Below the pieces are notes generated by a model. That model saw only the letters and a program-made list of their open reading frames with translations. It was not told where the DNA came from and searched no databases. The position numbers and the translations under genes were made by a program. DNA of 64,000 bases from a virus: positions 160,001-224,000 of IMG/VR virus record IMGVR_UViG_3300045988_119718; one strand, given 5' to 3'. How positions within the stretch are numbered: the stretch's first letter is position 1; every line of letters starts with the position of its first letter. This document shows positions 1,847 through 45,162 of this stretch, piece after piece.

Positions 1847-2260
1847 TTAGAGGTCATCCTCGTCATCATCATCTCTCCAGTGATTATTGATCGCCTTGGA
1901 ATCTTTAGAATCTGTAGTATGACGAGATTCTTCATCAAAAGGAGGAGCAATATACTCCTTCCAGTTAGCCTCTTCCTGCTCAAAGAAGGAATCATCTTCT
2001 TTGGACTCCAGATAGCGAATCTTCTCGCTTTTCATGATAATCATGCGTTTATCCTCTACAATGCGGTGGATAAATGTCATAATCATATCTGACTCACGGA
2101 TATCGATAATATCGCCATGCAAGAGCATGGCGGAAACAATCTTCTTAAGGAATGTTTCCATATCGGAAACTAAAACCCTTGCACCGGTGTAATCTTTGTA
2201 ATCGATTCTCAAATCGATCAGCCTACACAAATCGGATACACTATTTGCGAATTTCATCAT
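1847..2260 (-). CDS. Small acidic protein (137 aa), remote paralog of 36339..36656
   Basis: ORF with acidic C-terminus (DDDDEDDL) and locally elevated GC. Its upstream leader is nearly identical to that of the 36339..36656 gene. A 6-codon uORF (MINEKQ-stop, 2260-2280) is coupled to the start by a TAATG overlap. Confidence 0.6.
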   Translation of the reverse strand: MMKFANSVSDLCRLIDLRIDYKDYTGARVLVSDMETFLKKIVSAMLLHGDIIDIRESDMIMTFIHRIVEDKRMIIMKSEKIRYLESKEDDSFFEQEEANWKEYIAPPFDEESRHTTDSKDSKAINNHWRDDDDEDDL

Positions 2261-26577: not shown

Positions 26578-27939
26578 TTAATTCTTAATCTGCTCTTTAT
26601 ATAATTCCACGAAAAGTTCATAAGAGTTCTTTAATACATCAATGTTATTGTAGAAATCTTTCTGGGATCTTTCAATAACATCTTCTAATTGCTTTGCTAA
26701 GCCTTGTACTTCCTGCTGTGCAAACTGACTATCTCTTACTTTAATAAAGTGAAGCATATTTTCCATTGTAAAAGTATACATAGCATTGGTAGTTACATTC
26801 ATAGGTAAGAATGCTCTAGCATCTTGGTTAATCATACCTTGCTGTTTAAGCTGAGGATAGAGTTTAATAATTTCTTCACCTAATTCTTCAGATGTCATAT
26901 TAAACTCTTTACCACCAAATTTGAATGCATACTTCTTATTGATATCAGGATATGCTTTAGGGTTAAATGGAAGAGGATCAACAAATAATGCTTTCTTAGA
27001 ATAATCTACATATCTCTGAGATTCTTGAGAAATAGCGCATAAGTGTCTATTTACCTGTTGAGAAATAGCTCTAGAGAAATTCTTCATTTTAAAGCTAACA
27101 GTAGTACATCTAAAGATAGCTTTCATAAAGAGTTTAGCCTGTTCTTTATTTAGTTTATACATTCCTTCAGGGTCAATAAGTTCAACATGATCTTCATAGT
27201 GATCAGCAATACGTACTAAGATATCATTATATATAGCAATGATATCAGGGTAATTATACATAAAAATATTTTTATTAGAATATAGACGACTTTCATCAGT
27301 AAATGAGTTATCAAGATAATATGGATATTTATACTTAAATTCATCCAAGTCTACATAATCCTTCATATCTTCAAAGAACTCTTTTTCAATACTGTGTTTA
27401 GCAATATCCAAAATAACTCTATACAGGTCAAAGTTAAAGTTAGTTTCATTCTCAGATACAATACTGTCTGGGAGAGTACTATTTTGAATAAAATATCTAA
27501 ATGCTCTGATAGACCCTGACATTAATACGAAATACTCTTTAGCATCTTTATTATGAATAAAGTCTAAAGGTACGATATTCATGAAGTGTAATGCTGATAA
27601 ACTGGTATAGATAGAAGATAAATCAAAATCAGAGAGAACTGTATTATTCGATTTAAAACACAGCAAAACCATAATATTGGAATGACCACAAATAGAATCA
27701 TGACCATATCCCATAACTCTTTTAATATGAGCTAAGCATTTATCATATGTATTTTCTGGTGCTAACCCATAGCATGTTCTAGCAGCCATACTACAAAGAA
27801 ATGCTGATTCAGTATTATCAATAATATCGTAGGTAATAACGATATTGCGATTAGATTCATTCTGTAATTGTTTATTCATCTTTGAAGAATCTTTATTAAA
27901 GAATTCTTTAAGTTTGTTACGATTAAAAATCATAGTCAC
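26578..27939 (-). CDS. thyX: Divergent ThyX-like (flavin-dependent thymidylate synthase family) protein, unusually long
   Basis: N-terminal AARTCYGL...GHDSICGHSNI (ThyX GHxSxxEH region) and C-terminal NRHLCAISQESQRY, which matches the ThyX RHRxxxxSQxSQRY signature except that the second Arg is missing. At 453 aa it is roughly twice the typical ThyX length. Confidence 0.55.
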   Translation of the reverse strand: MTMIFNRNKLKEFFNKDSSKMNKQLQNESNRNIVITYDIIDNTESAFLCSMAARTCYGLAPENTYDKCLAHIKRVMGYGHDSICGHSNIMVLLCFKSNNTVLSDFDLSSIYTSLSALHFMNIVPLDFIHNKDAKEYFVLMSGSIRAFRYFIQNSTLPDSIVSENETNFNFDLYRVILDIAKHSIEKEFFEDMKDYVDLDEFKYKYPYYLDNSFTDESRLYSNKNIFMYNYPDIIAIYNDILVRIADHYEDHVELIDPEGMYKLNKEQAKLFMKAIFRCTTVSFKMKNFSRAISQQVNRHLCAISQESQRYVDYSKKALFVDPLPFNPKAYPDINKKYAFKFGGKEFNMTSEELGEEIIKLYPQLKQQGMINQDARAFLPMNVTTNAMYTFTMENMLHFIKVRDSQFAQQEVQGLAKQLEDVIERSQKDFYNNIDVLKNSYELFVELYKEQIKN

Positions 27940-29253: not shown

Positions 29254-29491
29254 AATAAACTCTCCTTTGCATAAAAACACTTATGAAAAAAGCCTTTTAT
29301 TCTAAAGTGATTATAATTTTATATATCTATTTTCTATAAATAACGCATAGAAGATTTTCTATATGTCCGGAAAATTAACAAAGGTTTTTAAACTGGAATA
29401 GTTCAAAAGTGTAATAGACTTCTACAACTTTATAAACTATTCTTTACTGAAGAAGTGTAAAACTTTTATTTTTATTGAAAGGAGAAAACTT

Positions 29492-29596
29492 TATGAACTC
29501 TATTATTGAAAAAAGTATATATGCTATTTTACTATTTCTCTGGAGTATTATTATCTACGATATTATTTCTGGTAATATTATTGAAGAACTTTTATA
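29492..29596 (+). CDS. Possible 34-aa hydrophobic peptide
   Basis: GAAAGGAGAAAACTTT-ATG. MNSIIEKSIYAILLFLWSIIIYDIISGNIIEELL is one TM-like helix. Confidence 0.25.
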
Positions 29597-29699
29597 AACT
29601 TTCTTAACTTCTATAACTTTATTGGAGTTTTTAACTATTAGGTTGATTCTAGGAAAGGATTTGTGCGACTGAAAGGAGCAACAAAACTTTCCGCCATTA

Positions 29700-29765
29700 A
29701 AAATGGGTTCTAACCCCCGTGAGGGGGTGGTGATTGTAGATTCCTACCCCCTGGAGGTAGACTAG
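29700..29765 (+). other. GC-rich structured element (two adjacent hairpins) in an AT-rich background
   Basis: CCCCC-gtga-GGGGG and CTACC-ccctgga-GGTAG. No tRNA cloverleaf could be built. Confidence 0.3.
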
Positions 29766-29811
29766 CTTTTAAACTTTTACCAAGTTTTATACTTTATAAA
29801 CTTTTTTAATT

Positions 29812-29837
29812 ACCATCTTCGGTATATACCGAAGATG
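29812..29837. terminator. 26-nt perfect palindrome CCATCTTCGGTATATACCGAAGATGG, candidate terminator for the 29470-29840 plus-strand unit
   Basis: Perfect self-complement with TATA centre, followed by TTATATTCTTT. Confidence 0.4.
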
Positions 29838-30233
29838 GGTTATATTCTTTAAAAACTGTATTTTTAGAAAGAATTCTTAATATATCAATACACTTATATT
29901 GAATTAAGGTTTAGAACTCTTATATTAAAAAATGCAGTGTTATATTTCTATTATATTGGATAGGTTTAGAACAGTATTATTTTGAAAAATACTTATAAAC
30001 TTGTTTTTATTGGTATTTTATTTACACTTCTTAATTGAAGAGGTTTTATAACTCTTTTCAATTAAAAATAAAATTATAAACTCGTAGTTTATAAAGTTTA
30101 GAAAAAGTTTATAATTATAGTATTTTTTCAATAAATTCTTTTTTGTTATTATTTAATAATTCATGTACATTTTCGTAATGAAATTTTTTTGACTACTTTT
30201 ATAGTTTGTATTCTTTTTTCTTTCCCTCTTTTT

Positions 30234-30280
30234 GGAGGGAAAGGGGGATGGGGGTTCTAGGGGGTAGGGGGGGGAAGGGA
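30234..30280. repeat. G-rich tract (GGAGGGAAAGGGGGATGGGGGTTCTAGGGGGTAGGGGGGGGAAGGG), G-quadruplex candidate
   Basis: G runs of 5, 5, 5 and 8 within 45 nt, flanked by mirror-image pyrimidine runs (TTTCCCTCTTTTT / CCTTTTTCTCCCTTTC). Confidence 0.8.
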
Positions 30281-30689
30281 ACCTTTTTCTCCCTTTCTTT
30301 TTTCAACTTCATAAAAATGTATAGATTCTTTTCTATCTTTATAAGTTGTATTTCAATGTATTCTAATAGAAATATGGCTATTCAGTAGTAAAAAATAAAA
30401 CGATTTTTCTTATAACTTCAGTGTAAAAACAAGGGTATGAGATTGATTCTCATACCCATATCTTACCTCGTATATTGCTTTCATACAAAAAATGCTATAT
30501 CTCAAAATATAGTATCGTATTCCTATTAAAAATAATAGTCATAGGAGCATGGTTTAAAAATACAACATTACATACTTCCTATAGAAAAATGATTTTTTCA
30601 TGGATTTTTACCTAAATATCAATAATTTCTGTCTAAATGCGAATCATTCGCATTTGTTAGAAAAAGTTTATAATTATAAACTGAAAAAA

Positions 30690-30940
30690 TCGCTAATTTT
30701 TTAGTTAAAAATTAAAAATCAACTAACATACCCTTTTTTCGCTATTTTCGTATTCCTATTAGTTTTAATGGAAATATGACTTTCTCATACCTTGCTAAAA
30801 ATTTAGTTAAAATTGAAAAACCAATTAACATACACTTTTTTAGCCATATTCGTATTCCCATTGGTTCTAATGGAAATACGACTTTTCAATTTTTTCTAAA
30901 AATTTAGTTAAAATTGAAATACCAATTAACATGTGGTCAC
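30690..30940. repeat. Tandem direct repeats of ~105 bp (2.4 copies)
   Basis: AAAAATTTAGTTAAAATTGAAA(A/T)ACCAATTAACAT... occurs at ~30796 and ~30899, with a degenerate copy at ~30700. Each unit contains TTCGTATTCC(T/C)ATT(A/G)GTT..AATGGAAATA. Confidence 0.75.
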
Positions 30941-31022
30941 TACGAAATTATAAACAAAAGTTTATAATTAGTTTATAATTTATTTTTAAAGAAAATAAAA
31001 AACATGATAAAAGACAGCAGAA

Positions 31023-31049
31023 ACCCAGTACAGGATAAACCTGTACTGA
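31023..31049 (-). terminator. Hairpin downstream of the 1448-aa gene
   Basis: CAGTACAGG-ataaa-CCTGTACTG, followed on the minus strand by GGTTTCTGCTGTCTTTTATC. Confidence 0.4.
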
Positions 31050-31096
31050 GTATTCACGCTATCTTCAGTTGGTATACTATAATGTAGGTAAAAATA

Positions 31097-34000
31097 TTAA
31101 TCATGAAGATTATCTACATTAGTAAGGTTATTCCACTTTATACCAAGTTTTTCCTTACACTGTCTAGATAATTCCATAAGTACTTTGTTCAATGAACCAC
31201 TACTAATGATAGAAGCTGTCATACGAGCATTAACCGATGCTGAAGTTAATAAAGCATCTATTGGTTCATCAGGTCTAAAATCAGTATATGGTTCTTTACC
31301 TTTAGGCATAATATCTTTTACTACACCTTTGATTGCAGTGTTGTAAGTCAGCTTATCACCAACGCCCATCTTATCTTCACACTTGATGTAGAAGCAGAAC
31401 ATTACACCTTTTTCCAAGTTCTTGAATTTGCCTTCTGGTAATAACTTTTCTGTAGAAGGTACTGATTCATTAATTTCTATATCTGTTACTCCGTTATCTT
31501 TAAGATATTTCTTTTCTTTCTTTATAGAATTTTCATACTTAGAAACTATCTTCTTTAATGATGGAGATAATTCATCTAATTCACAAGTTCTAAATATTTT
31601 AATATCTTGAAGAGTACCAGTAATCTTAGAATGAACTTGAATTCTACCAAAGTCTGTAGCTAATTCTAATTCATCATCAGAAATATTCTTCATTAAAGTA
31701 TTAGCTTCATCATCAGTAAATGCATTCTGGAAGATTATTAATGGAGAACCTTCTTCTATAGGTTTACCTTTTTCAGCTAAGAAGAATACATTAGAACCAG
31801 CATCTAAAGAACATGTTTTTTCTACACAATAGAATGAAGTAAGAGCATCTGAAATACGTTCATCTATAATAGAAGAATCTTCATATGCTTCATCTGTACA
31901 CATTATAGCTATTTTAGCCATAGTACCAATGTTAAATGCAACGTTTTTATTATCAGCGTTATGCCCTATAGAGGGACTGAACGAAGTTGGGTCATATGCT
32001 AAGATATCATTATACTTTAAGGTTTGACCTTTCTTTACAAAAGGTTTAAGTTTAACTGTTACATAGAAACCACCATCAGAGTTCTTCTGTGTTTTCTCTC
32101 TTAAATCTACAGAATGCTTGGATTTATTACCGTCTTTATCTACTTCTTCAAAGATAATAAAGTCATCAGTAATATTTAAAACTTTTCCTTTTACTCCTTT
32201 AAATTTATAAGAAAAAATATTAGAAGTAAAGTAAGGTAATGCCTCATCCATGCCATAAGTAATAAAATTCGGAGATGAAGATTTAACTCTCATAATATGC
32301 TTAGTAGTCTGAATATAGCCCATTGCAGTACGAATTGGGTCATCATGTGTAGTAGCATAAGGAGCCATAGCTTCATAAACAGACATACCATTCAATGTAT
32401 TCAATTTAGATTTATCATTACTTACTTTAAGTATACCTCTGCCATCAGCTATGGAAGAATTAATAGTAGCCTGTCTAGTAATACCTACATTACCAGCAAA
32501 CCCAGTAGACATAGATAAGATACCTAACATGGAATCGTCATATACACGTTTATCTAATGTATAAGCTCTATCAGCATTCATACCAGATAAGCCTTTGAAT
32601 GAGTATGTATTAATAGCTTCAGCTTCTAATAATGGAGAAGATACCGAAAGATCAGATATACCAGGGTCTTTCATAACTGCATCTATAAGAGCAGACTGTT
32701 TAATGGTAAACTTAACTCCTCTACCAGTTCTCTTCGATTTATTAGCATATTGACCATATGCATTAGCAATAGCTTGATATAAATAACCAGCTAATATTTC
32801 ATTAGAACGTAATCTATTACCAGAGATATCTGCATGCTTATTATAAGAAGTAGAAGCTAATAAGCTACTAGCATAAGCTAATGCTTCTATATAATCGTAT
32901 GGAATATCGTACTTCTTGCAAATATCAATAGTCATAGGATCAAATTCGCAATCATAGAAGTTATCAAAACCATCAGCTTTAATTCTACCACCAAATTCAT
33001 CTAAGATATCTAACCACATATTTTTTGTGTTGATATCTTTAATAGAGAATCTAGATAAATCAGTTTTAGCTAATCCTGCCATTAATAATGAATCTTCTGG
33101 CTTCTCATCATTATAAACTAAATATCCATCACTAAATCTAATTACAGATTCTGTTTCAGTTACCTTAGGTCTAGTATCAGAGAATCTGTATTTAATCTTA
33201 GCTTTATCCATAGACTTCTGTAAACCTTCAGAAAAAGCCATAAGAATAATAACTGGAATTTTAGTATTCATGATAGATGCTTGAGAGTAAGAAAGTTTAT
33301 TAGATGGTTTAGCTAAAGCATAAGTTTCTGCAAATACTTTATCTTTAGAAGCTAAGAATTTACCAATAGTATAAGCTGCATTTTCTTTATTAGAATAGAT
33401 AGCTTTTTTAGTTTTACTATCATACCCAATTAAGATATCAGTTTTTTCATTAAATTTTTTATCTACAGGAAGTTTCTTTAATGCATCATAGTCAAAAGCT
33501 ATATAACTTCCATCAGCTGTAGTAATTTTAGAGTATAAAGCACCTAAGTCTTTAAATTCTATCGGCATATCATACTTGGAAAGAATAAAAGTATTATCAC
33601 CGATATAAACTTTAACTTTAGAATCTGTGTCTTTTAAGTTCTTTAAAGCTTTAGTAAGTTTAGATACACCTTTAGTAGACTTAGTACCACCAGAAGGATT
33701 AACTCTTGAAATAAATATTTTATGATAAGAGGTAACTATCTGAGTTGTATCCTCTTCTGTTTTAATTATAGGAAGTAAAAGAATCTGTCCAGCTATAGTT
33801 TTAGTATTTCCTCTTAATTTCATAAATCTATGATTTATAAATTTAGGAATATCTATAGCTATATTTGATCTAGTACCATTAATATCTTCTAATTGTACTC
33901 TTAAAGTATAAATATAATCTTCATTAGTAGATTCATCTGTCATTTCCATACTAGCAACACATAATGGCCTAGACTTATTTCTAAGAGATTTAAATATAGC

Positions 34001-35443
34001 AATAATATCTTCATCTATATCATAGGATTTATTAAAGTCTAAAGCTGTTACATCTTTCCATTCTTCATTAATAGAATCAATGGGAATAGTTTCAGGCTTT
34101 AATTCTCTTTTCTTAGTATAGTAATTCTTTAATACATCTCCTACTTTTTTACCATGGATTACAGTTTTATCAAAATCTTTATCTAACTGCTCCATTCTCT
34201 TTTTTCTAGCTTCAGTTATTTTAGTAATAGGAGGATTATCTAAATCTAATATTACATCCTTGATATAATCTTCATCATTATCTACTGTAATTTCTTTTAA
34301 TTCTTTTTCTTGAGATTCTTCTTCTTGTTCTTCCTCGGATTTTTCTTTAGGAGTCTCATCATCGTTGAATCCATCGTCATCTAAATCATCTGGATTAAAA
34401 GAAGCTTTAGCTGAAATAGAATCAGAATTATTTTTCTTTTTAGATTTAGTAGCACCAAATCTATTATCCATAACTATTGAATCAGAAGAATCTGGATTAA
34501 TCTCAGCATCATCTGCATTAGATAAGTCATTCTTTATTAATTTTTTAGTAAAGAATACAAATCTAATTAAATCTTTAATATCGAAATTAGAGAAGTCTAC
34601 TTTGAAGTATGCATTTTTAGAAGCGATAATAAAGTCTATACCACTCCAATAATTAGATATAATCTGTCTTTGTCTAACTAATCTATAAATCATAGAAAAT
34701 GGGTTTATAGAATTATTAAAATCAAATATATCGCAGCCTTTAGGAATCCATGATTCTACAGGAATGATACAGGTCTTTCTAGAATAATATTGATTAATTC
34801 TAGAATCATCTAAGTATCTAGTGATAATATGATGAAGTAAGTCTAATCCTCTATCTCTTTGATAAACTTTATTATTTTTCAAGAATATATTTATATAATG
34901 GGATAAATCTACGATAAGATTCTTTCTATTATATTGCTTTAGATTAACAAAAGTATTTCTAATAAATGGAACTTTAGCTTTAACTTTACTATAGATTTCA
35001 AATATTTCTTTTTGGTTTTTTATTCTTTCATTATAAAGAAGATTTCTAAATATACTTGGATAGTTTTGATTCATTCTAAAATCTTCATTTAATATTTCAT
35101 CTACTTTATCAGGAAAGAATACTCTACTATCATCTAAGTCATAATATAAATCATTATTATCACCATCAAATTTAGACTCTAACATAGTCTTCATAAACGG
35201 TTCATTTATAGTAGAAGCTTCATTAGTGAAAAATGTGAAATCCTTTTCTGTATAATATGAAATAAAAGTATTTCTATTAACAAGAAACTTATTATTATTT
35301 AAAAAGCTAATAGTATCATCAATATCCTTGGTTAATATAAACAAAGCACTATTATGATAAATATCATTTTGCGTATATGCTGGGTAAAATAGTTTTGTTT
35401 TCATTAACCTTAAAGGAATGAGTTTTTCTATCGTATATGGCAT
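31097..35443 (-). CDS. Multisubunit-RNA-polymerase beta-subunit homolog (C-terminal conserved regions) with a long unique N-terminal extension
   Basis: SPLLE...[31 protein letters not shown] aligns to RpoB NPLSE..[43 protein letters not shown]...[16 protein letters not shown] aligns to [52 protein letters not shown]...ARM aligns to [25 protein letters not shown]...SRMN. The three blocks occur in the same order as in RpoB. Confidence 0.6.
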   Translation of the reverse strand: [1448 protein letters not shown]

Positions 35444-36338: not shown

Positions 36339-36656
36339 TTATTTCTTAATTTCGGTGAAATATTTCTCACCGAGTTTCTGAGCATCTTTAACGATGCTCT
36401 TGCTGAGAGACATAATTGTCTTTACAGCATTAATGACTGGTTCATAGTAGCGTTCAACCAGATCACACGCCTCCTCAATGAAGTTCTGTTTGAACTTGAA
36501 AGAGACGAAGAAGAAGTCGCTCGTCTCAATCATGTTGCCTCTGAACCCAAGGGATTCAAATGAAGCCGACTTGCATTTCCTGAGAGCCAGCTTTGGGAAC
36601 CTTTTAGAAATGAAATTCTTGGTTTCCTGATCGATAGTAACGTTGATTGTGATCAT
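36339..36656 (-). CDS. Small protein (105 aa), remote paralog of 1847..2260
   Basis: The start is ATG (MITINVTID) 8 nt after GGAGGA. The listed longer form uses a TTG inside the RBS. Locally elevated GC. ETSDFFFVSF aligns to ESDMIMTFIH in the paralog. Confidence 0.55.
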   Translation of the reverse strand: MITINVTIDQETKNFISKRFPKLALRKCKSASFESLGFRGNMIETSDFFFVSFKFKQNFIEEACDLVERYYEPVINAVKTIMSLSKSIVKDAQKLGEKYFTEIKK

Positions 36657-36745
36657 AATGTTTGTCCTCCTTATAGACAAATGACTAGAACTTTTTGTTC
36701 TAGTAACATAGATAAATGAATACTTGATATGTATTCATTGTTATA
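36657..36745 (-). promoter_or_regulatory. Conserved 5' leader (copy B): RBS block TGTCTATAAGGAGGACAAAC plus hairpins CTAGAAC-aaaaa-GTTCTAG and AATGAATAC-ttgatat-GTATTCATT
   Basis: Shares the TTTGTCCTCCTTATAGACAAA(A)TGACTAGA block and the TAACATAG block with copy A. The hairpin stems differ in sequence but stay paired. Confidence 0.55.
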
Positions 36746-36777
36746 TTATACAACTATAAAATACGAGTATTACAAAT

Positions 36778-36803
36778 TAGACTACCTTATATAAGGTAGT
36801 CTA
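36778..36803. promoter_or_regulatory. 26-nt perfect palindrome TAGACTACCTTATATAAGGTAGTCTA (copy B) in a divergent intergenic region
   Basis: Same TACCTTATATAAGGTA core as 2419-2446. It sits between the leftward small gene and the rightward 2767-aa gene. Confidence 0.55.
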
Positions 36804-36858: not shown

Positions 36859-39800
36859 ATGAAAGGAGGAAATTCTATTTTGGATAAACTACCGAAAGTT
36901 AATAACTATATGAAAAACTTAGGAAAGTCTATTAAGTATGTAGCTATTAACGAAATACGAGAAACCTTGCCAATAGTATTTGAAACTAAAGAAACTAATG
37001 AAGAAGCTATTAGTTCAATACGTGCAAGTTTTCGTAATAAAAATAAATTAAAGACTATATCTACTATTGCTAAAGATAGCGAATTCTATAAAACTGGAAA
37101 TGATATATATAAGAACTTAAAGTCTTCTATAAAGACTGGGAATTTTTATTCTCAAAAAAGACAAGATAAAGCTGATAATGAATTTATGAAAAGCTTTATG
37201 GGAGAAGATTTTAACTTTGATGATGATTTCAAAGATGAAGAAGGCTTTGATGAGAGTGAAGATTCATTAAATGAAAATGCTGATAGCTTAAATGAATTAA
37301 ATAATGATCTTAATTCTGGATTTGAAGCTAGTGCTACTGCTATATCTAATACTACTATAGAATCTGCTAGATATGTAGGAGAGACAGTAAAAGCTAGTGC
37401 TGCTATGGCATATGCACAGAATAGTGAACAAACTTTTTTAATGAGAACTGGCTTTAAGAGTTTAGATGATGGATTAAAGAAATTAGTTCATTTTAATTCT
37501 GATATTCTTCAAAAGCATATTCAAAACTCTACTACATTCTTTGATAATACAAGCAAACTTTTAGCTGAGCAAAATGCTATGATGAAAGAAATGCTTGAAA
37601 TGCAGAGAAACGTATATAAAGCTAATCAAGCTAATGAAAATAAAACTGATTTTAATAAATACGCTAATATAGTTTCATCTGGTGGTGTAGTTAATTTATC
37701 TGAATACTTTAAAAATATTAAGTCCAACTTTAGTGAATGGTCAGAACCAATAATGATGATGCTTAACATGATAAAAGCAAATCCATTGGAAATGCTCATT
37801 CAAGGTGGATTAAGCGTTTTAGGCTCAGATAGTATGAAAAAAGCTGGAGCCGATTTAAATAAAACTTTATCTGGTACATTTGGTAAGTATTTATCATTTT
37901 TAGAAAAGCAAGCTAAAAAGAATGGTGGTATTTGGGATACATTAAATGATATATTTGGTGTAAGAAACAGTAAAAAATTTGATATTGATACAGGCAATTA
38001 TCAAAAAGGGCCTATGCAATTTAATGGTATTGCTAATAGGGCTATTACTGAAGTAATTCCTGGGTACTTAGCTAGAATCGAATCTGCATTAACCGGTGGA
38101 GAAGAAAGATTCTATGATTTTGCTGGTGGTAGATGGACTAATGCCAAAAAGATACGTAATAAATATGATAAAGAAATAAATAATGCTAGAGAAAATGCTG
38201 GGTTATCTGATTTATTTAGTGAGATAGGTAGTTCTTTAAATAAAATAAATTTTGATAATTATAATGGTACTAAAATAAGCTCTAAAGATAAAGATGAAAT
38301 ATTTAATAAAATAATGCAAACCATTGTTGATAATAATGGTGATATGGATGATAAATTCATCGTTAAACGAAAAGGTAAGAATGGTGAAGGTAATATAGAT
38401 TTTAAAGCTTTTTATAAAGCTTTTGGGTTTACACCTTCACAACTTACAGAATCCCAAAAGGCTATGATCAATGTAATGGCTACAGCATTAGCTAATACTT
38501 CTACATCTACTAGAGCTAGTTTAAATAATAGTGTAAGACAAGCTAAAGGTTCTGATTCACGGTTCAAGCAAGAAATAGAAAATGATCCAAATAGTGTATA
38601 TAGAAATATAGTTAATGGTCAATTATCTGGTTCTAGATTTGTACAATATGCTGCTGCATTTGGTGAAGGATCTATGGAAGCACCAGATAGATATATTCCT
38701 AGTGATAATTTAATAGAGGCTAATGGTAAAAATAAGAAAAACAAAGGAAGAAAATCTAATGATATTTCTAATACTTCTATAGTTGCTAGAAAGAATAAAC
38801 CAGTAGATTATGCTAAACAAGTATTTTATAAAATAAGTACTGTAGATGAATTTATAGAACTGCATCCTTCTAATGCTGAACCTATCATACGAGCAATGAT
38901 TGGTTACTTCAATGGGTTAAAGTCTATAGAAGAACTGAATGAAAAAGATGAACCTATCGCTAATTTTATTTCTATGGCTAGAACATTAGACTCTTATGAT
39001 TATCGATCTGATTGTAAACAGTATGCTGATTTTATTGATCTAAAAAAAGGAAGAGGAAAATTTTCTATTAAAGAAAGTCAATATAATGAATTACCTTTAG
39101 TATGTAAAAACTTCTATACGTTTATTATGAGCTTAGTATCTAAAGAAACTATTAGTACTTCTGAAGGATTGGCTAAGAGTGTTGATGATGCTCATAATAC
39201 TAAACAAGAATATAGCTACGATAAATATAAAGGTAATGGATTATTTGATAAATTAGATAAAGCTAAAGGTATAGATAAACTCGGTGTATTAATGAGCTAT
39301 AGTAAGAAATTAACTAGTATGCCATTTGATATACTTGGTAGTGTAATAGCTAAAACCGATAAAATTATCTATGATATGTTTTTTGGTAATGAGCAAATGA
39401 CTGATAAAAATACTGGTAAAAAAATTACTGGATTCTTTCAGTTAATGACTTCTAAAATTGGTGATACTGTAGAAAACTTATATAATGATATTAAAAAACG
39501 TATTTGGGGTAAAGAGCAGTGGAATACCTATAAAAATACTGTTTATGGTGCTTTTTCATCTATGGTAAATTATGGTAAGAGTTTTTTCGATGATGATGAA
39601 GAAGAAAATACTAATACTGAAGAAGCAAAAACCGATGAAAATGCAGAGACTGCTGCTGAAACATCTAAAAATAAAGTTAATAAGAATAATAGAAAAAACT
39701 CTAGAAGAGCTGCAAGACGAAGAAGAAAGCGTAGAAATCGTAGGAGAGTAAGAGGTGCGGCATTTGGTTTAGGAATGGTTCCTGAAACTGATATCTATAC

Positions 39801-42800
39801 TCTTCATAAGGGTGAAGCAGTAATTCCAGCATATATGAATCCATCCTATACTGGAACTGATATAGACCCAAATAAACACGCTAAAGATGAAGCGGCTGTA
39901 GCTAAGGAATATGGTTTAAATGTAAAAGGTTATGCTAAAGGTACTGTAGACGACGAATCTAAAAGAGAGAAAAAAGATAAAGAGTCTATGTTTAAAGTAC
40001 TAAAGGAAAAATATCCAGCAGCTTTAGGTGAAAGTACTGTAGGTGGTATATTAGGTACTATTATAGCAGGCCCATTTGGTTTAATAGGTGGTGCTACATT
40101 AGGTGCTGCTAACTATATTCTTAAGAATTCTACTACTGCTAATAAATTCTTATTTGGTGATACTGATAAAAAAAGCTTATTAACTAGAACTAAATCTGGT
40201 TTAAGAAAAATATTACCTAAGAGTATAACTAACTTTTTTGATGAACAGACTAAAAAAGTTAAAGATATTGGTAAGTTTACTATTGCTGGTGGTTTAGGTG
40301 GCGTAGTATTAGGAGCTGTAGGCGGTCCAGTTGGTTTAATGGGCGGCTTAATGTTAGGTGCTACTACTGGGTTGCTTAAAAATTATGAAGGTGCTCAAAA
40401 CTTAATGTTTGGCAACCACAATGTAAAAGGTAATATAGATAAAATATTAGATAAGAAGTATCTTAAATCTATAGGATTAGGGGCATTAGCTGGTGGCGTA
40501 TTAGGTGGCCCGTTAGGGATGCTTGGCGGTGCTATGCTTGGTGTAGCTGGTAAATACGCTTCTGATTCTGAAAAGTTTAAAGACTTTTTGTTTGGTAAGA
40601 GAAATAAAAAAGGTAAAAGAAATTATAAAAATGGTTTCTTAGGTAAGATTGGTGAAAAGATATTAGCTCCATTAGGCACATTAAAAGATGATATTGTTAA
40701 ATATATGGATAAGAATGTATTCCAGCCAATTAGTAGAGCTTTAACACCTTTAACCAGAATTACTCAGTTAGGTATGAGAAAGTTATTTAGAGGTCTTCAA
40801 AAAGGGTTCGATGCCATTACAAATCCTTCTTTAAAAATGAGATGGTATGCTAATCTTCCTACTTTAATGAAAGGACCAGCTGGTAGATATATAGGTCATG
40901 GCTTAGCTGGTGCAGCAGGTGGGTTTATGTATGGTGGTCCATTAGGTGCATTGATTGGCGGTGTACTAGGCGGAGCATCTGCATTTAAAGTTAAAGATAA
41001 GACTATAGCAAGTTGGTTAGGAAAAGGCATAGCTACTATTGGTACTGTACCTGGTAAAGCTTTAGATTTCGTTACTAGAAAACTTGATAAGAAATTAATA
41101 GCTAAAGGTAATATGGATTCTATTTCTATGAGTGCTAAAGACAGAGTAGACTTCATGGAAAAACATGGGTATGCATATGCTAAAGAAGAGTATAAGCAGA
41201 ACGATATAACTTTAAGAGATTCATCTGCAAGTCAGTTACAAGCTATGAAAAGTACTATTGAGATAATTAAAGAGAACAAAAAGAAGTCTAATTATGATAG
41301 AGGTAAAATAGAAAAAGAAATTAAGAATGTAGTTAAATCCATTCCTAACTTGGATTTATCTGGAATGCAGAAAATCTTAAAGATTATCAGAAATGCTATT
41401 AAGAGTAAAGATGAAAGATCTGTGCCAGAAGCTATTGATAAAATATCTAACTATCTACGCTTAAGAGGCTTAAGTGACGATCAAATAGAAAGTTATATTA
41501 GACCTTTAAGAATAGGTATGTCTGGGTTATCCGCTAATAAAGCAGTTAAGAATGCCATGGAACAGGATACTGCTAATAGAAGTGAATATCTTAAAAAGAA
41601 TTTCAATTTTAACGTAGTAGATGGTGATATAGATAAAGCTCTTGAGCAAGTTGATAGTGAATTACAGAGTAGAAAGAGTAAAGGTGAAACAGTAGAAAAA
41701 GAATCACTTGATAAAGGCGATGCTGCTATTGTAGAATCCACTAATAAAGTCAATGATTCGATAAGATTAAGTAATATATATTTATCTGCTATTACTGATT
41801 ATTTAAAATACGGTAAAGTATCAGATGAAACAGAAAGAAAACTTAAAAAGTTTACTGCTATGGATGGCGGTAATATAGTAGCTAAAACTGATAGTAAAGA
41901 CAGCATGGAAGACTCAACTTATCAATTCTCTCAGAGAACTGGTACTATGGTTAAGATGGCTAAGACTTCTGATGGTGGATATAAACCTGATACAACTGAT
42001 AAAGATACTAAAGAAGCTATTGAAAAAGCAGATGCAGAACGCGATGCTATAATGTCTTTAGGTCAGTACGCTAAATCAAAACTTAAAAGTATTAAAAAGT
42101 CATTAAAGAATCGAGCCTCTAAATTTAAAAACTCAGCAATATTTGGTGGATTTAAAGACATATTTAAAAGTATATTTGGAACACCTTTAGGCATAGTAGG
42201 AGATATACTTGGTATGATTCCAGGTGCTAATCTTCTTAAAGGCAAATTAGCAAGATTTGCTGGTAATAAATTAGGTGGTTGGGCTGATAAATTAGCTAAT
42301 AAAGCTCAAAACTTAAAAGGTACTGGTAAATTCTTAGGTAAAGTAGGCGGAAAGCTTTTAGGTGTTGGTTCATTCTTACTTAAGAATGTGGCTGATGCTG
42401 CTAGTGCTGCTGCTGATGCAGAAGAATCTACTCCTGAATTTGAAACTGAATTAGAAGCATTTAATTATATGGCTAGAAAGATTTCTGGTGTTGAAGCTGC
42501 TGTAGTAGCTATAGATCAGTTTACAAACAACCAGATGCCTAATGCTTTAAAAGCTCCTGGTAGTATACATACTACAATAGATCCTAAAACTGGTAAACCT
42601 GTTAATGCTAAAACTGGAAAAGGCTTCCTTGGTGGATGGTTATCTTCAGCATGGACTGGTGTTACTGGAGTTGCATCCTCAGTATGGAATGGCGTAAAAG
42701 CAGTTAGTTCTAAAGCTATGTCTGCTGTTGGCTCAGTAATAGGCTGGGTACAAAATGGGTTAAAGAAAGTATTCAATTTTGCAGCTAAATTCTTACCATC

Positions 42801-45162
42801 TAATATTGGTAATAAAATATCTTCATTTGGTTCTGCAATATTAAAGAAAGTATCTAATCCTAAAGTAGCAGTTAAAGTAGCTGAAAAAGCTTCTAGTAAA
42901 GGTATACAATTAGGATTAGGGCCTATAGGTTGGGCTTTCTTAGCAGGTAGTATTGCAGTTAGCTTCTATCAAGGATATAATAATGCTGAAACCATTTGGA
43001 AGGGTGGATCTGCTAATACCTCTTCTGATGAAGATTTATCAATGGGTGATAAAGCAATATGCGGTGTTTGCTCAGTCGTAGCTAATGAATTACTTATGGG
43101 AATAATGACCCCATCTGAAGTACTTGGTATTGCTAAATCTATATTTGGTAAGATAAAAGGTGTTACTGATACTATTAAAGAAAAAGCATCTAGTATTATG
43201 AGTACTATTTCAGGATATAAAGATAAACTTCTTAATACCGGTAAAGAAATGTGGGATAAAGTTAAGACATCATTCGGTAATGTTTGGGATGGTATTAAGA
43301 ATACAGTAGGAAATGCTATTCAAACTATTAAAGATACATTTGAAAAGTTTAAAAAAATTGGATATGATACATTAGTAGAAATTCTTAAATCTCCTATTGA
43401 TTGGATAAAGAAGAAAGCTAGTTCTTTATTTGGCTTTGGTGGAGATGATAAGAAAACATCAACTCCTGCTACTAATAAAACATATACTTCTCCTAAACCA
43501 ACAGCAGCTGCAATTCCAGCTGATACTAGTAAAGTTGATCCTAATGTAGACCCAGATAACGGTATAGGTACAGGTGAAAATGGAACCAATACGACAAAGA
43601 CTTGGAGAGAAAAGTATGACGGTATTTATGTAAGAGGTAAGAAAGTTGCTACAGGTGGGCCATTGTCTGGTAATAGCTTACTTAGATATAGATTAGCTAG
43701 TATCGGCGGTGGAGATATGACACCAGCTGCAATCTGGGATATTCTTACTACCAAATATCATTATTCTAACCAAGCTGCCGCTGCAATTATGGGTAGTATG
43801 CAACAGGAATCTTCATTTGATCCTAATGCTAGTCAGAACGGTGGTGGCATTGAAGCTTCTATTGCACAGGGTGAAGGTACAAACGGATTTGGTCTTTGCC
43901 AGTGGACTGGTTCTAGAACACAAGCATTAGTAAACTTCTGTAGTTCTAATAATCTTGATCCTACTACTGCTGAAGGACAGATTGCTTTCATGAACTATGA
44001 AATGGGACAAAGAGGTTCTAACGCTGCATTCAATAGTGCTGGTTCAGTAGATGATGCACTTAAAGTAATGCAACAATATGAGGGATATGGCGAAGTAGGT
44101 AATAGAGACAATTATGCTAGACAAATATTCCAGAACCAAGGTAGAGGTATAACTACTTCTGGTTCAGCTAGTGGAGGCTCTGGTAGTAAATCTTCTGGAG
44201 ATAATTCTATATTTGGTAGAATTGATAAATTATTTGATAAAGCATTTGCTCCATTTACATCTATTTTTGGTAATATATTCGGTGGCTCTTCGGATAGTAA
44301 TAGTAACTCTAGTGGTAGTGGTGGAGCAGGTAGTGCTGCGACAGATATGTCTGGAACTATAGACTCTGGTTCTACTGCTGATAAGTTGCTTGCTAATCTT
44401 AAGTCTGAAGCTGGGGGAGACGCAGTAGTAAGTGCTCCATATGGTGAAGCAAATCACCAGGGTCATACTCATGGTGGTATTGATATAGCTGCACCAGAAG
44501 GAACCCCTATTAAATCTCCAATAGCTGGTACTGTAATAGATAATCGCTATGGTGGTGGATATGGTAACTATGTTCAAATTAAAGATAAGAACAACATGGA
44601 TCACTTATTCCCACATATGGTATCTCCATCTCCGTTAAAAGAAGGTACAGAAGTATCAGTTGGCGATACTGTAGGGTATATTGGTTCTACTGGTAATTCA
44701 ACTGGTCCTCATGTCCATTATGAAATAGATGATGATGCTGTAAATAGAGGTGCTGAAACTTCTAAACCACATATAAATCCTGGTAAATATATGGGTGGTC
44801 CATTATCTGGTGATAGTACACTTAAGTTTAGAAAGAAAGTTAATGATCTTGCTAATGCTGGTAATAGAGCTGCTATCAAAGCACTTAAGAAAGGATACGG
44901 CACTGATAATGTCGGTGTTGGAGGCCCATTACCTGGAGATAACTTAGTTAATAACAATATAGCAGTTAAAGACTACTCAGATCAGTTAAATCAAATTATT
45001 TCATTACTCAGTATAATTGCAGGTGCGGTACAATCTCAAGCTTCTACCCCAGTTGCAGCAGCTAATGTACCAACTAACATGAGTGATACTATGAGTACTA
45101 CAACTCCTAATACTTCATTATTAAATATAGTAAAGAGTATGATGAATATTGCATCTCATTAA
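36859..45162 (+). CDS. Tape-measure-like giant virion protein (2767 aa) with lysozyme-like and M23-peptidase domains
   Basis: Coiled-coil-rich N-terminal part and four glycine-zipper repeats (GGPxGLxGGxxLG). GLCQWTGSR...LD...Q.AF lysozyme-like block near residue 2330. M23 motifs HGGIDIA...GSTGNSTGPHVHYE near 2550. The start is probably the TTG at 36880, 9 nt after GGAGGA. Confidence 0.6.
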   Translation: MKGGNSILDKLPKVNNYMKNLGKSIKYVAINEIRETLPIVFETKETNEEAISSIRASFRNKNKLKTISTIAKDSEFYKTGNDIYKNLKSSIKTGNFYSQKRQDKADNEFMKSFMGEDFNFDDDFKDEEGFDESEDSLNENADSLNELNNDLNSGFEASATAISNTTIESARYVGETVKASAAMAYAQNSEQTFLMRTGFKSLDDGLKKLVHFNSDILQKHIQNSTTFFDNTSKLLAEQNAMMKEMLEMQRNVYKANQANENKTDFNKYANIVSSGGVVNLSEYFKNIKSNFSEWSEPIMMMLNMIKANPLEMLIQGGLSVLGSDSMKKAGADLNKTLSGTFGKYLSFLEKQAKKNGGIWDTLNDIFGVRNSKKFDIDTGNYQKGPMQFNGIANRAITEVIPGYLARIESALTGGEERFYDFAGGRWTNAKKIRNKYDKEINNARENAGLSDLFSEIGSSLNKINFDNYNGTKISSKDKDEIFNKIMQTIVDNNGDMDDKFIVKRKGKNGEGNIDFKAFYKAFGFTPSQLTESQKAMINVMATALANTSTSTRASLNNSVRQAKGSDSRFKQEIENDPNSVYRNIVNGQLSGSRFVQYAAAFGEGSMEAPDRYIPSDNLIEANGKNKKNKGRKSNDISNTSIVARKNKPVDYAKQVFYKISTVDEFIELHPSNAEPIIRAMIGYFNGLKSIEELNEKDEPIANFISMARTLDSYDYRSDCKQYADFIDLKKGRGKFSIKESQYNELPLVCKNFYTFIMSLVSKETISTSEGLAKSVDDAHNTKQEYSYDKYKGNGLFDKLDKAKGIDKLGVLMSYSKKLTSMPFDILGSVIAKTDKIIYDMFFGNEQMTDKNTGKKITGFFQLMTSKIGDTVENLYNDIKKRIWGKEQWNTYKNTVYGAFSSMVNYGKSFFDDDEEENTNTEEAKTDENAETAAETSKNKVNKNNRKNSRRAARRRRKRRNRRRVRGAAFGLGMVPETDIYTLHKGEAVIPAYMNPSYTGTDIDPNKHAKDEAAVAKEYGLNVKGYAKGTVDDESKREKKDKESMFKVLKEKYPAALGESTVGGILGTIIAGPFGLIGGATLGAANYILKNSTTANKFLFGDTDKKSLLTRTKSGLRKILPKSITNFFDEQTKKVKDIGKFTIAGGLGGVVLGAVGGPVGLMGGLMLGATTGLLKNYEGAQNLMFGNHNVKGNIDKILDKKYLKSIGLGALAGGVLGGPLGMLGGAMLGVAGKYASDSEKFKDFLFGKRNKKGKRNYKNGFLGKIGEKILAPLGTLKDDIVKYMDKNVFQPISRALTPLTRITQLGMRKLFRGLQKGFDAITNPSLKMRWYANLPTLMKGPAGRYIGHGLAGAAGGFMYGGPLGALIGGVLGGASAFKVKDKTIASWLGKGIATIGTVPGKALDFVTRKLDKKLIAKGNMDSISMSAKDRVDFMEKHGYAYAKEEYKQNDITLRDSSASQLQAMKSTIEIIKENKKKSNYDRGKIEKEIKNVVKSIPNLDLSGMQKILKIIRNAIKSKDERSVPEAIDKISNYLRLRGLSDDQIESYIRPLRIGMSGLSANKAVKNAMEQDTANRSEYLKKNFNFNVVDGDIDKALEQVDSELQSRKSKGETVEKESLDKGDAAIVESTNKVNDSIRLSNIYLSAITDYLKYGKVSDETERKLKKFTAMDGGNIVAKTDSKDSMEDSTYQFSQRTGTMVKMAKTSDGGYKPDTTDKDTKEAIEKADAERDAIMSLGQYAKSKLKSIKKSLKNRASKFKNSAIFGGFKDIFKSIFGTPLGIVGDILGMIPGANLLKGKLARFAGNKLGGWADKLANKAQNLKGTGKFLGKVGGKLLGVGSFLLKNVADAASAAADAEESTPEFETELEAFNYMARKISGVEAAVVAIDQFTNNQMPNALKAPGSIHTTIDPKTGKPVNAKTGKGFLGGWLSSAWTGVTGVASSVWNGVKAVSSKAMSAVGSVIGWVQNGLKKVFNFAAKFLPSNIGNKISSFGSAILKKVSNPKVAVKVAEKASSKGIQLGLGPIGWAFLAGSIAVSFYQGYNNAETIWKGGSANTSSDEDLSMGDKAICGVCSVVANELLMGIMTPSEVLGIAKSIFGKIKGVTDTIKEKASSIMSTISGYKDKLLNTGKEMWDKVKTSFGNVWDGIKNTVGNAIQTIKDTFEKFKKIGYDTLVEILKSPIDWIKKKASSLFGFGGDDKKTSTPATNKTYTSPKPTAAAIPADTSKVDPNVDPDNGIGTGENGTNTTKTWREKYDGIYVRGKKVATGGPLSGNSLLRYRLASIGGGDMTPAAIWDILTTKYHYSNQAAAAIMGSMQQESSFDPNASQNGGGIEASIAQGEGTNGFGLCQWTGSRTQALVNFCSSNNLDPTTAEGQIAFMNYEMGQRGSNAAFNSAGSVDDALKVMQQYEGYGEVGNRDNYARQIFQNQGRGITTSGSASGGSGSKSSGDNSIFGRIDKLFDKAFAPFTSIFGNIFGGSSDSNSNSSGSGGAGSAATDMSGTIDSGSTADKLLANLKSEAGGDAVVSAPYGEANHQGHTHGGIDIAAPEGTPIKSPIAGTVIDNRYGGGYGNYVQIKDKNNMDHLFPHMVSPSPLKEGTEVSVGDTVGYIGSTGNSTGPHVHYEIDDDAVNRGAETSKPHINPGKYMGGPLSGDSTLKFRKKVNDLANAGNRAAIKALKKGYGTDNVGVGGPLPGDNLVNNNIAVKDYSDQLNQIISLLSIIAGAVQSQASTPVAAANVPTNMSDTMSTTTPNTSLLNIVKSMMNIASH

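Follow-up and report, generated by a model that had tools for sequence, protein, structure and literature searches.

A gene on the minus strand of the viral DNA analysed here very probably codes for beta-N, the N-terminal beta-like subunit of a virion-packaged multisubunit RNA polymerase (vRNAP), carried by an uncultivated jumbo phage of about 253 kb from the phiKZ/AR9 group. The window, which is the whole stretch of 64,000 nucleotides studied (positions 160,001 to 224,000 of IMG/VR record IMGVR_UViG_3300045988_119718), contains this gene complete, and the ORF list and translation give the same frame of 1448 residues that had been proposed in a sequence-only reading of the DNA (Table 1). The gene belongs to a family that is already well described, in which it is unremarkable, and it has the usual length of a vRNAP beta-N. 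A ribosome-binding site (AAGGAAA) is located about 8 nt 5' of its ATG. The hairpin that follows the stop codon is, judging from its sequence, probably the terminator of the gene; it was not called in the terminator scan.

Table 1. Features of the beta-N gene and its protein (positions in the window)
Feature	Position	Strand	Basis or remark
vRNAP beta-N gene, complete	31097..35443	minus	1448 aa + stop codon; ORF list, translation
N-terminal family-specific globular domain, residues 1-310	34514..35443	minus	No RpoB counterpart
Disordered acidic/basic linker, residues 311-410	34214..34513	minus	AF2 pLDDT and composition
Beta-like body, residues 411-1448	31100..34213	minus	AF2 model and Foldseek
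Block 1, fork-loop / rifampicin-cluster equivalent, residues 936-988 (SPLLEAEA...GFAGNVGI)	32480..32638	minus	hhalign; weak hmmsearch match
Block 2, segment from residues 1032-1042 through 1160-1198	31850..32350	minus	Aligned to RpoB EHDDANRALMG onward; hhalign and family profile
Block 3, beta DPBB active-site segment, residues 1350-1414, with K1364 and K1372	31202..31396	minus	Aligned to RpoB up to NPLGVPSRMN
Hairpin CAGTACAGG-N5-CCTGTACTG directly 3' of the beta-N stop codon	31020..31050	minus	Read from sequence

The assignment to the beta-N family comes from similarity to its members. The protein matches PHROG 3148 ("RNA polymerase beta subunit") with E=1e-136, residues 332-1431 pairing with positions 347-1418 of the 1424 in the profile. 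With tblastn, 272 jumbo-phage records were matched at 276 places in all (best E 5e-121), among them 78 records of Pseudomonas phages and many of Erwinia, Salmonella and Klebsiella phages. More than 80 full-length metagenomic homologues were also found. The matched genes include PBS1 gp80/gp78 (equivalent to AR9 gp078), DC4_00067, phiR1-37 g099, annotated as "phage structural protein", and a DT01 gene annotated as "virion-associated RNA polymerase subunit". With the 20 kb surrounding the gene, megablast gave no match among cultured phages. The closest cultured relatives are the beta-N proteins of AR9/PBS1 (gp078), DC4 (DC4_00067), SA1 (QPI17140) and LPJP1, with about 30% identity over residues ~410-1433, whereas the phiKZ-like proteins are about 22-24% identical over the beta-like part.

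Several members of this family have been characterised. AR9 gp078 is among the vRNAP late genes (PMC5312081), and the 1,417-aa product of Staphylococcus phage DC4_00067 was detected in virions by LC-MS (PMC10638138). The characterised reference for beta-N is SPN3US gp241 (equivalent to phiKZ ORF178), which is absent from the tblastn records listed; it has 1,401 aa with a non-RpoB N-terminus of about 400 aa, it is essential, and without it no vRNAP subunit gets into the head (PMC5105663). The window protein is of about equal length and shares with phiKZ ORF178 and SPN3US gp241 both the N-terminus of about 400 aa and a beta-like body that ends past the DPBB lysines. AR9 gp078, DC4_00067 and phiR1-37 g099 likewise have this length and an N-terminus of about 400 aa that is unlike RpoB. 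The three sequence features of the beta-N family were all found, namely similarity to its members, a split site after the DPBB and a long non-RpoB N-terminus. By analogy with orthologues that are about 23-30% identical, the window protein would be packaged in the virion, expressed late and active. As in phiKZ-like phages, the gene appears to stand apart from those of the partner subunits and lies beside structural genes, which here include virion structural PHROGs and a tape-measure-like protein that carries lysozyme and M23 domains.

Jumbo phages of the phiKZ/AR9 group have two paralogous RNAP sets (PMC7598289) and packaging is not provable by sequence alone, which leaves the reading that the gene encodes the beta subunit of the second, non-virion RNAP (nvRNAP), made after infection for the middle and late genes. 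This is very unlikely. The cultured-phage matches listed are all the virion-set gene, with a single matching place per record in all 40 records listed and no second beta-like gene at E 1e-5. Moreover, nvRNAP beta is split elsewhere than vRNAP beta (PMC7598289), the published nvRNAP sets hold no polypeptide of about 1,400 aa with an N-terminal extension of about 400 aa, and the other beta genes of DC4 encode 713 and 540 aa (PMC10638138). When the PDB was searched with the family profile for nvRNAP beta chains (the class of AR9 gp105/gp089 and phiKZ gp71-73/gp123), no AR9 nvRNAP chain was matched at E<=1; the AR9 enzyme is present in the copy searched, as its beta-prime chain surfaced in another search. 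The structural neighbours of the gene also argue against an nvRNAP subunit.

By profile comparison and structural modelling the window protein is genuinely homologous to bacterial RpoB, as the sequence-only reading had claimed. The RpoB profile search that it had suggested gave a significant result: with a profile built from 25 family sequences, bacterial RpoB chains of the PDB were matched at E=1e-14, in three stretches that follow one another in order. The family profile was required for this, phmmer with the single sequence against the PDB being only marginal for RpoB (E=0.0017). In one hhalign alignment (98.4%, E=4e-15), residues 934-1414 are collinear with E. coli RpoB 517-1113. The three motif blocks on which the earlier claim had been built (residues 936-988, 1160-1198 and 1362-1380) all lie inside it in the expected order, the first pairing with RpoB from about residue 517 onward (NPLSE...GPGGL...PEGPNIG). 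Of the Pfam domains Rpb2_1, Rpb2_2, Rpb2_3, Rpb2_45, Rpb2_6 and Rpb2_7, by which a cellular RpoB orthologue would be recognised, just RNA_pol_Rpb2_6 was detected, over residues 1223-1413 with 23.4 bits; this is exactly the gathering threshold, and the match taken alone is of threshold level only.

Residues 441-1448, as modelled by AF2 (pLDDT 83.5, pTM 0.80), have the RpoB fold, which extends from the N-terminal part of RpoB to the beta double-psi beta-barrel inclusive. In a Foldseek search of the PDB with this model, each of the best 50 matches was a bacterial RpoB chain (E 4e-25 to 4e-23), with 1,085-1,291 alignment columns, TMq of 0.45-0.54 and about 12% identity. The window protein shares with bacterial RpoB a fold over about 1,000 residues and the collinear fork/Rif region, HDD..R..MG segment, YED pair and GDK...KG(V) lysines. 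It differs in the low identity, in an extra N-terminal region of 440 residues and in the missing part beyond RpoB residue ~1113-1150.

Such low identity, together with a large non-polymerase N-terminus, could also be expected of an RNAP beta descendant that has lost catalysis and serves as a structural or internal head protein. This is extremely unlikely given the conservation of the active site. In the family alignment D1034, D1035, R1038 and D1189 never vary; nearly invariant are E1188 (of YED), G1362, D1363 and K1364 (GDK) and K1372 (IKGV). The motifs GDK, IKGV, YED and HDDP.R.AMG are kept in homologues down to 24% identity, which indicates purifying selection on an active enzyme, and the SPN3US orthologue is essential. 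At the sequence level, the residues that contribute to the active site, that is the two lysines of GDK...IKGV and the acidic pair of YED, are shown to be retained in the window protein.

The alignment reaches residue 1113 of the 1342 in RpoB; the window protein stops 34 residues beyond this point, about 76 residues past the second catalytic lysine, K1372. Since it stops shortly after the barrel, the rest of beta (past ~RpoB 1113-1150) would have to be supplied as a separate protein. Read from the alignment, the window protein is still a split beta, with the vRNAP-specific split site just after the DPBB with both lysines. The sequence-only reading had described it as an unusual fused form, and a new beta joining several jumbo-phage fragments in one chain can be given almost no credence: the beta-N gene does appear as 2-4 pieces in PBS1 and several Staphylococcus phages, so that short fragments can seem to be the rule, but these pieces make up a single gene into which introns or homing-endonuclease genes have been inserted (PBS1 gp80, HNH gp79, gp78), the C-terminal part of beta is missing here, and the architecture is ruled out by the lengths of the uninterrupted orthologues, which span 1,393-1,463 aa (phiR1-37 g099 1,393 aa, SA1 1,418 aa, LPJP1 1,436 aa, DT01 1,463 aa; PHROG 3148 has 1,424 positions). 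The window gene, unlike those of PBS1 and these Staphylococcus phages, is uninterrupted.

The N-terminal ~450 residues had been described as unrelated to beta and of low complexity. The first statement was borne out, as residues 1-440 have no RpoB match (family profile against the PDB, hhalign). The second applies to residues ~311-410 alone, a linker with AF2 pLDDT of 26-50 and, among its 100 residues, 19 D, 13 E, 11 K and 10 S, which is variable in length and sequence among homologues. Residues 1-310, on the contrary, form a conserved and confidently folded globular domain according to AF2 and the family alignment. No homologue of this domain was found in the PDB. It is common to PBS1 (E=9e-18) and LPJP1 (E=3e-10), with weak matches in Staphylococcus phages, and its similarity to phiKZ-type proteins was undetected (HMM against DT01, E=0.47).

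In relatives, enzyme domains are carried inside the beta-N N-terminal domain, namely NUDIX, GNAT, a P-loop kinase-like domain and DUF6582. The insertion site corresponds to a loop at residues ~76-124. These insertions may merit a separate look.

By analogy with the orthologues, the N-terminal domain may direct the enzyme into the head and assist in its assembly; as homology to the phiKZ-type N-terminus is undetectable, this role is carried over by position and analogy. A more speculative and rather doubtful proposal is that the domain is a scaffold for head incorporation and ejection with a built-in insertion site, by which beta-N would deliver host-takeover effectors with the polymerase, the window protein being a minimal form free of cargo. 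If this were true, vRNAP beta-N would be a vehicle injecting such effectors alongside the polymerase.

The window holds no further RNAP subunit, as judged from PHROG scans of 30 of its other ORFs. The absence of a beta-prime DFDGD motif, stated in the sequence-only reading, was confirmed in all six frames, and a six-frame search for the D-x-D-G/A/S-D motif of an RNAP subunit also found none. In SA1 and DC4 a divergent RNAP-subunit gene of 408 aa adjoins the beta-N gene, whereas no such neighbour exists in the window, where the SA1 protein gave no tblastn match. The earlier suggestion that the partner subunits lie elsewhere agrees with a beta-prime-N-like protein cluster, P0391, that carries the Mg-binding GGDYDGD triad. 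A member of P0391 is found on a 253,886-bp contig, and a contig of equal length carries P0222, an N-beta variant; both proteins occur in the same two samples. At 90% clustering P0222 groups with P0001, whose identity to the window protein is 98%. Moreover, in relatives 50-66% identical the two genes share a contig, separated by about 45 kb. A beta-prime-like partner therefore appears to be encoded elsewhere in this ~253-kb phage lineage, a statement made at the level of the lineage rather than of the window's own contig. Another candidate, P0191, was rejected as the beta-prime of this phage because it comes from a sister lineage, in which beta-N is 50% identical to the window protein; a closer query led to P0391.

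The hub at 29.2-31.15 kb contains 11 of the 15 copies of the motif AGTTTATAA present in the window. This motif cannot be called a phage-specific promoter because a related 11-mer, searched with one mismatch, showed no window-wide enrichment (19 matches vs 13 expected) and because AGTTTATAA overlaps sigma-70-like -35/-10 pairs. Judged by sequence, the hub motifs resemble ordinary sigma-70 -35/-10 promoters no less than phage-specific ones. At gathering thresholds, an Rfam scan of the whole window had no match; with permissive settings the hub yielded just three sub-threshold matches of chance level. No tRNAs were found in the window.

The source contig has a length of 252,690 bp. The phage genome has a G+C content of 28% and the host is probably a Gram-positive bacterium (Bacilli), in which it differs from the phiKZ-like phages. 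The DNA of AR9, PBS1 and phiR1-37 contains uracil (PMC7598289), while the window phage encodes a ThyX-type thymidylate synthase.

If the characterised orthologues are a guide, the beta-N gene would be expressed late, the vRNAP subunits would assemble around its product, and the N-terminal domain with the flexible acidic linker would direct the complex into the prohead. Ejected along with the DNA, the enzyme would then transcribe the early genes from phage promoters rich in AT, and for this it would need neither host RNAP nor a sigma factor; RNAPs of the phiKZ/AR9-type family work without alpha, omega or sigma (PMC7598289). What is new here is a divergent sequence for a known family, and no concept is changed. 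The window is very probably part of an uncultivated jumbo phage of the phiKZ/AR9 group, of about 253 kb, in which the early genes would be transcribed by an injected, sigma-independent multisubunit RNAP. Annotation of this genome should anticipate a second RNAP set of the non-virion type, AT-rich early promoters and independence from the host RNAP.

The reading frame for the RNA polymerase (RNAP) beta homologue, 1448 codons on the minus strand, was borne out by the ORF list and its translation. It is preceded by a plausible ribosome-binding site (RBS), a hairpin lies immediately past its stop codon and its G+C content (28-30%) is the same as that of its surroundings. The three RpoB-like motif blocks reported by the sequence-only reading were all found in the protein. 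The sole Pfam domain recognized was RNA_pol_Rpb2_6 (residues 1223-1413), with 23.4 bits, which is exactly the gathering score, and phmmer of the single sequence against PDB sequences gave a marginal RpoB match (E=0.0017). A profile made from an alignment of 25 homologues (A1) matched dozens of bacterial RpoB chains of the PDB in three ordered stretches, with E-values down to 1e-14; this comparison with RpoB had been named beforehand as the test of the assignment and its outcome was significant. Moreover, hhalign of A1 with E. coli RpoB placed residues 934-1414 on RpoB 517-1113 in one continuous alignment (probability 98.4%, E=4e-15), in which the block pairings proposed earlier recur residue for residue (e.g. 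NPLSE...PEGPNIGLI).

The AlphaFold2 model of residues 441-1448 had a mean pLDDT of 83.5 and a pTM of 0.80. Every one of its best 50 Foldseek matches in the PDB was a bacterial RpoB chain, with E-values of 4e-25 to 4e-23, over 1,085-1,291 alignment columns and with TM scores of 0.45-0.54 on the query. The protein was thus correctly recognized as an RNAP beta homologue, and it is a true one, though a single-sequence search barely reveals the homology. The beta-like part had been placed at about 850-1448; RpoB homology does lie there, but the Foldseek matches of the 441-1448 model show that the beta-like body begins near residue 440. In A1, which includes homologues down to 24% identity, D1034/D1035/R1038, E1188/D1189, G1362-D1363-K1364 and K1372 are invariant or nearly so, K1364 and K1372 being the lysines given by the beta barrel to the active centre (PMC7598289). 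The keeping of these residues across homologues argues for an active enzyme subunit.

The protein belongs to phrog_3148, 'RNA polymerase beta subunit' (E 1e-136, profile positions 347-1418 of 1,424). When it was compared by tblastn with 50,697 phage genomes, 276 places in 272 records were matched, with a single place in each of the 40 records listed, so that no paralogous, non-virion beta gene in those phages reaches E 1e-5. Those listed comprise a phiKZ-like set, with Pseudomonas, Erwinia, Salmonella, Serratia, Klebsiella, Vibrio, Aeromonas and Ralstonia as hosts, and AR9/PBS1-like Bacillus, Staphylococcus, Listeria and Fusobacterium phages along with Yersinia phage phiR1-37. The PBS1 gene matched is gp80 plus gp78, one gene split by an HNH gene and the counterpart of AR9 gp078, which is grouped with gp125, gp145, gp189 and gp264 as late-expressed subunits of the virion RNAP, vRNAP (PMC5312081). 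The match in Staphylococcus phage DC4, UFVDC4_00067 (1,417 aa), was found in purified virions by LC-MS (PMC10638138). Other matches are QPI17140 of SA1 (1,418 aa), g099 of phiR1-37 (1,393 aa, annotated 'phage structural protein') and proteins of Listeria phage LPJP1 (1,436 aa) and Pseudomonas phage DT01 (1,463 aa, annotated 'virion-associated RNA polymerase subunit'). Profile A1 matched no chain of the AR9 non-virion RNAP (nvRNAP) in the PDB at E<=1; the copy searched contains this enzyme, as its beta-prime chain was seen. We are therefore highly confident that the gene is an orthologue of the N-terminal beta-like subunit (beta-N) of vRNAP. Salmonella phage SPN3US gp241 (= phiKZ ORF178) serves as the genetic reference for beta-N, though it was absent from the 40 tblastn records listed; without gp241 no vRNAP subunit gets into the head (PMC5105663). 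The window beta-N is a standard part of a well-studied system.

The description of the protein as an unusual fused form fails, since the orthologue lengths show that beta-N is normally a chain of about 1,400 aa; the shorter pieces in PBS1 and some Staphylococcus phages are due to intron or homing-endonuclease insertions. Judged by hhalign, the protein nevertheless represents a split beta, the alignment stopping at residue 1113 of the 1342 of RpoB and the chain ending 34 residues on. A chain that ends there agrees with the split specific to vRNAP, where the C-terminal part of beta is supplied by a small protein of its own (PMC7598289; PMC7824862).

No further RNAP subunit was detected by PHROG scans of 30 other window ORFs, a six-frame search of the 64 kb found no DxDGD-like motif and tblastn of the 408-aa neighbouring RNAP subunit of SA1 gave no match in the window. 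Over 24 kb, the window is 100% identical to metagenomic contig k119_143398 of ENA ERZ27229725, which is 252,690 bp long. The family of beta-prime-N-like proteins was traced stepwise from the Staphylococcus protein DC4_00023 (DFDGD). Cluster P0191 was rejected as the beta-prime-N of this lineage, as it comes from a sister lineage with a beta-N 50% identical to the window protein. There the two genes are found together on ~254-kb IMG/VR contigs, some 45 kb from each other, and this arrangement recurs in a lineage with a 66%-identical beta-N. A closer query led to cluster P0391 (562 aa), which contains GSIGGDYDGDQVTVK; in this lineage the catalytic motif is DYDGD, not DFDGD. P0391 members are on a 253,886-bp contig, and a contig of the same 253,886 bp carries P0222, a beta-N variant in the same 90% cluster as P0001, which is 98% identical to the window protein. 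P0391 and P0222 also co-occur in two samples (ERZ28567583 and ERR10201263). P0391 shows no similarity to the AR9 nvRNAP beta-prime, which, together with its length, suggests a virion paralogue. With no partner detected in the window and P0391 in the lineage, the earlier statement that the partners lie elsewhere is supported.

Among the beta-prime-N-like loci (L117-L126; proteins P0501 and P0391), the 562-aa protein has GGDYDGD and the common 520-aa variants diverge right after GGDY. Several of the loci, L117, L119 and L120, have an ORF for an HNH_3 endonuclease some 2 kb further downstream. These features suggest that an intron or homing element interrupts the codons of the catalytic triad, in a manner that resembles the PBS1 beta-N gene split by an HNH gene.

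Directly downstream of the beta-N gene is a non-coding hub without a convincing ORF, except for a possible 34-40-aa hydrophobic peptide (ATG at 29494, strong RBS). No Rfam family at threshold and no tRNA match were obtained in it. Of the 15 window copies of AGTTTATAA, 11 fall in the hub, on both strands. The hub motifs would fit the 'extended AT-rich' early promoters described for this phage group (PMC5312081); equally, scoring finds in them sigma-70-type -35/-10 pairs with perfect TATAAT. The hub may produce a set of small early transcripts or sRNAs, or may resemble a replication origin.

Coordinates of the features in the window
Feature	Position	Strand	Remarks
vRNAP beta-N gene	31097..35443	minus	1448 codons
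Block 1	residues 936-988		SPLLEAEA...GFAGNVGI
Block 2	residues 1160-1198
Block 3	residues 1362-1380
Loop holding inserts in relatives	~35072-35218	minus	residues ~76-124
Non-coding hub	29281-31096		1.8 kb
Exact 22-mer	30098 and 30657		TTAGAAAAAGTTTATAATTATA, two copies in hub
Tandem units	30690-30932		three of ~102 bp, hub
G-rich tract	30230-30280		hub
Terminator-like hairpins	29813-29838, 30266-30296, 30433-30457		hub
~160-nt element	2283-2441 and 36661-36799		77% identity
ORFs behind the element	1847..2260 and 36339..36680	minus	unrelated
Tape-measure-like protein	36859-45162	plus	2,767 aa
Large ORF	6665-13945	minus	2,426 aa
ThyX/Thy1-type protein	26578-27939	minus	453 aa

Elsewhere in the window, a conserved hairpin and the perfect palindrome CTACCTTATATAAGGTAG are present in both copies of the repeated ~160-nt element, whose RBS region GTCTATAAGGAGGACAAA is identical in the two. 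The element probably acts at both ORFs as a common promoter/leader or as a module bound by a regulator, and the 'conserved palindromes' of the sequence-only reading may refer to it. Near its C-terminus, the tape-measure-like protein has domains of the phage tail lysozyme (residues 2290-2425) and M23 peptidase (residues 2537-2625) types. For the 2,426-aa ORF, neither Pfam nor PHROG gave a significant match; on visual inspection, its C-terminal third seems made of repeated beta-rich modules, and it is possibly a fibre or decoration protein. AR9, PBS1 and phiR1-37, among which are the closest beta-N relatives in culture, have uracil-containing DNA; the window phage, by contrast, encodes a ThyX/Thy1-type thymidylate synthase domain, which suggests that its genome contains thymine.

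The N-terminal ~450 residues had been described as low-complexity. This holds for residues 311-410, which are disordered and rich in D, E, K and S, but residues 1-310 are conserved across the family and confidently predicted (pLDDT about 90 except in the loop 76-124). An HMM of this domain matched the N-terminus of PBS1 gp80 (E=9e-18), LPJP1 (E=3e-10) and, weakly and at the same position, Staphylococcus proteins; the phiKZ-type DT01 was not detected. In addition, the best Foldseek match in BFVD was a 921-aa PBS1 protein (E=1e-13). When 1.84 billion cluster representatives were searched exhaustively with a profile, 489 proteins were matched. Of the 150 listed, most are long and of beta-N type (1,400-2,785 aa); there are also shorter ones (199-1,100 aa), which may be fragments or separate genes. 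On these matches, the domain is an old, lineage-specific piece of vRNAP beta-N in the Firmicutes-type branch. By extension from the SPN3US genetics, it would have a role in head targeting and assembly.

In many homologues this domain is interrupted by an insert of 100-1,300 residues, at the place of the short, disordered loop of the window protein. Among the inserts are domains of the DUF6582, GNAT acetyltransferase, NUDIX hydrolase and P-loop kinase-like kinds, and the resulting proteins reach 2,785 aa (metagenomic relatives P0278, P0320, P0259, P0242, P0239 and P0061). No description of such enzyme inserts was found in the literature cited here. These enzymes may be packaged and injected together with the polymerase and, as the loop of the relatives has accepted such modules, the beta-N subunit may double as a carrier of injected effectors.
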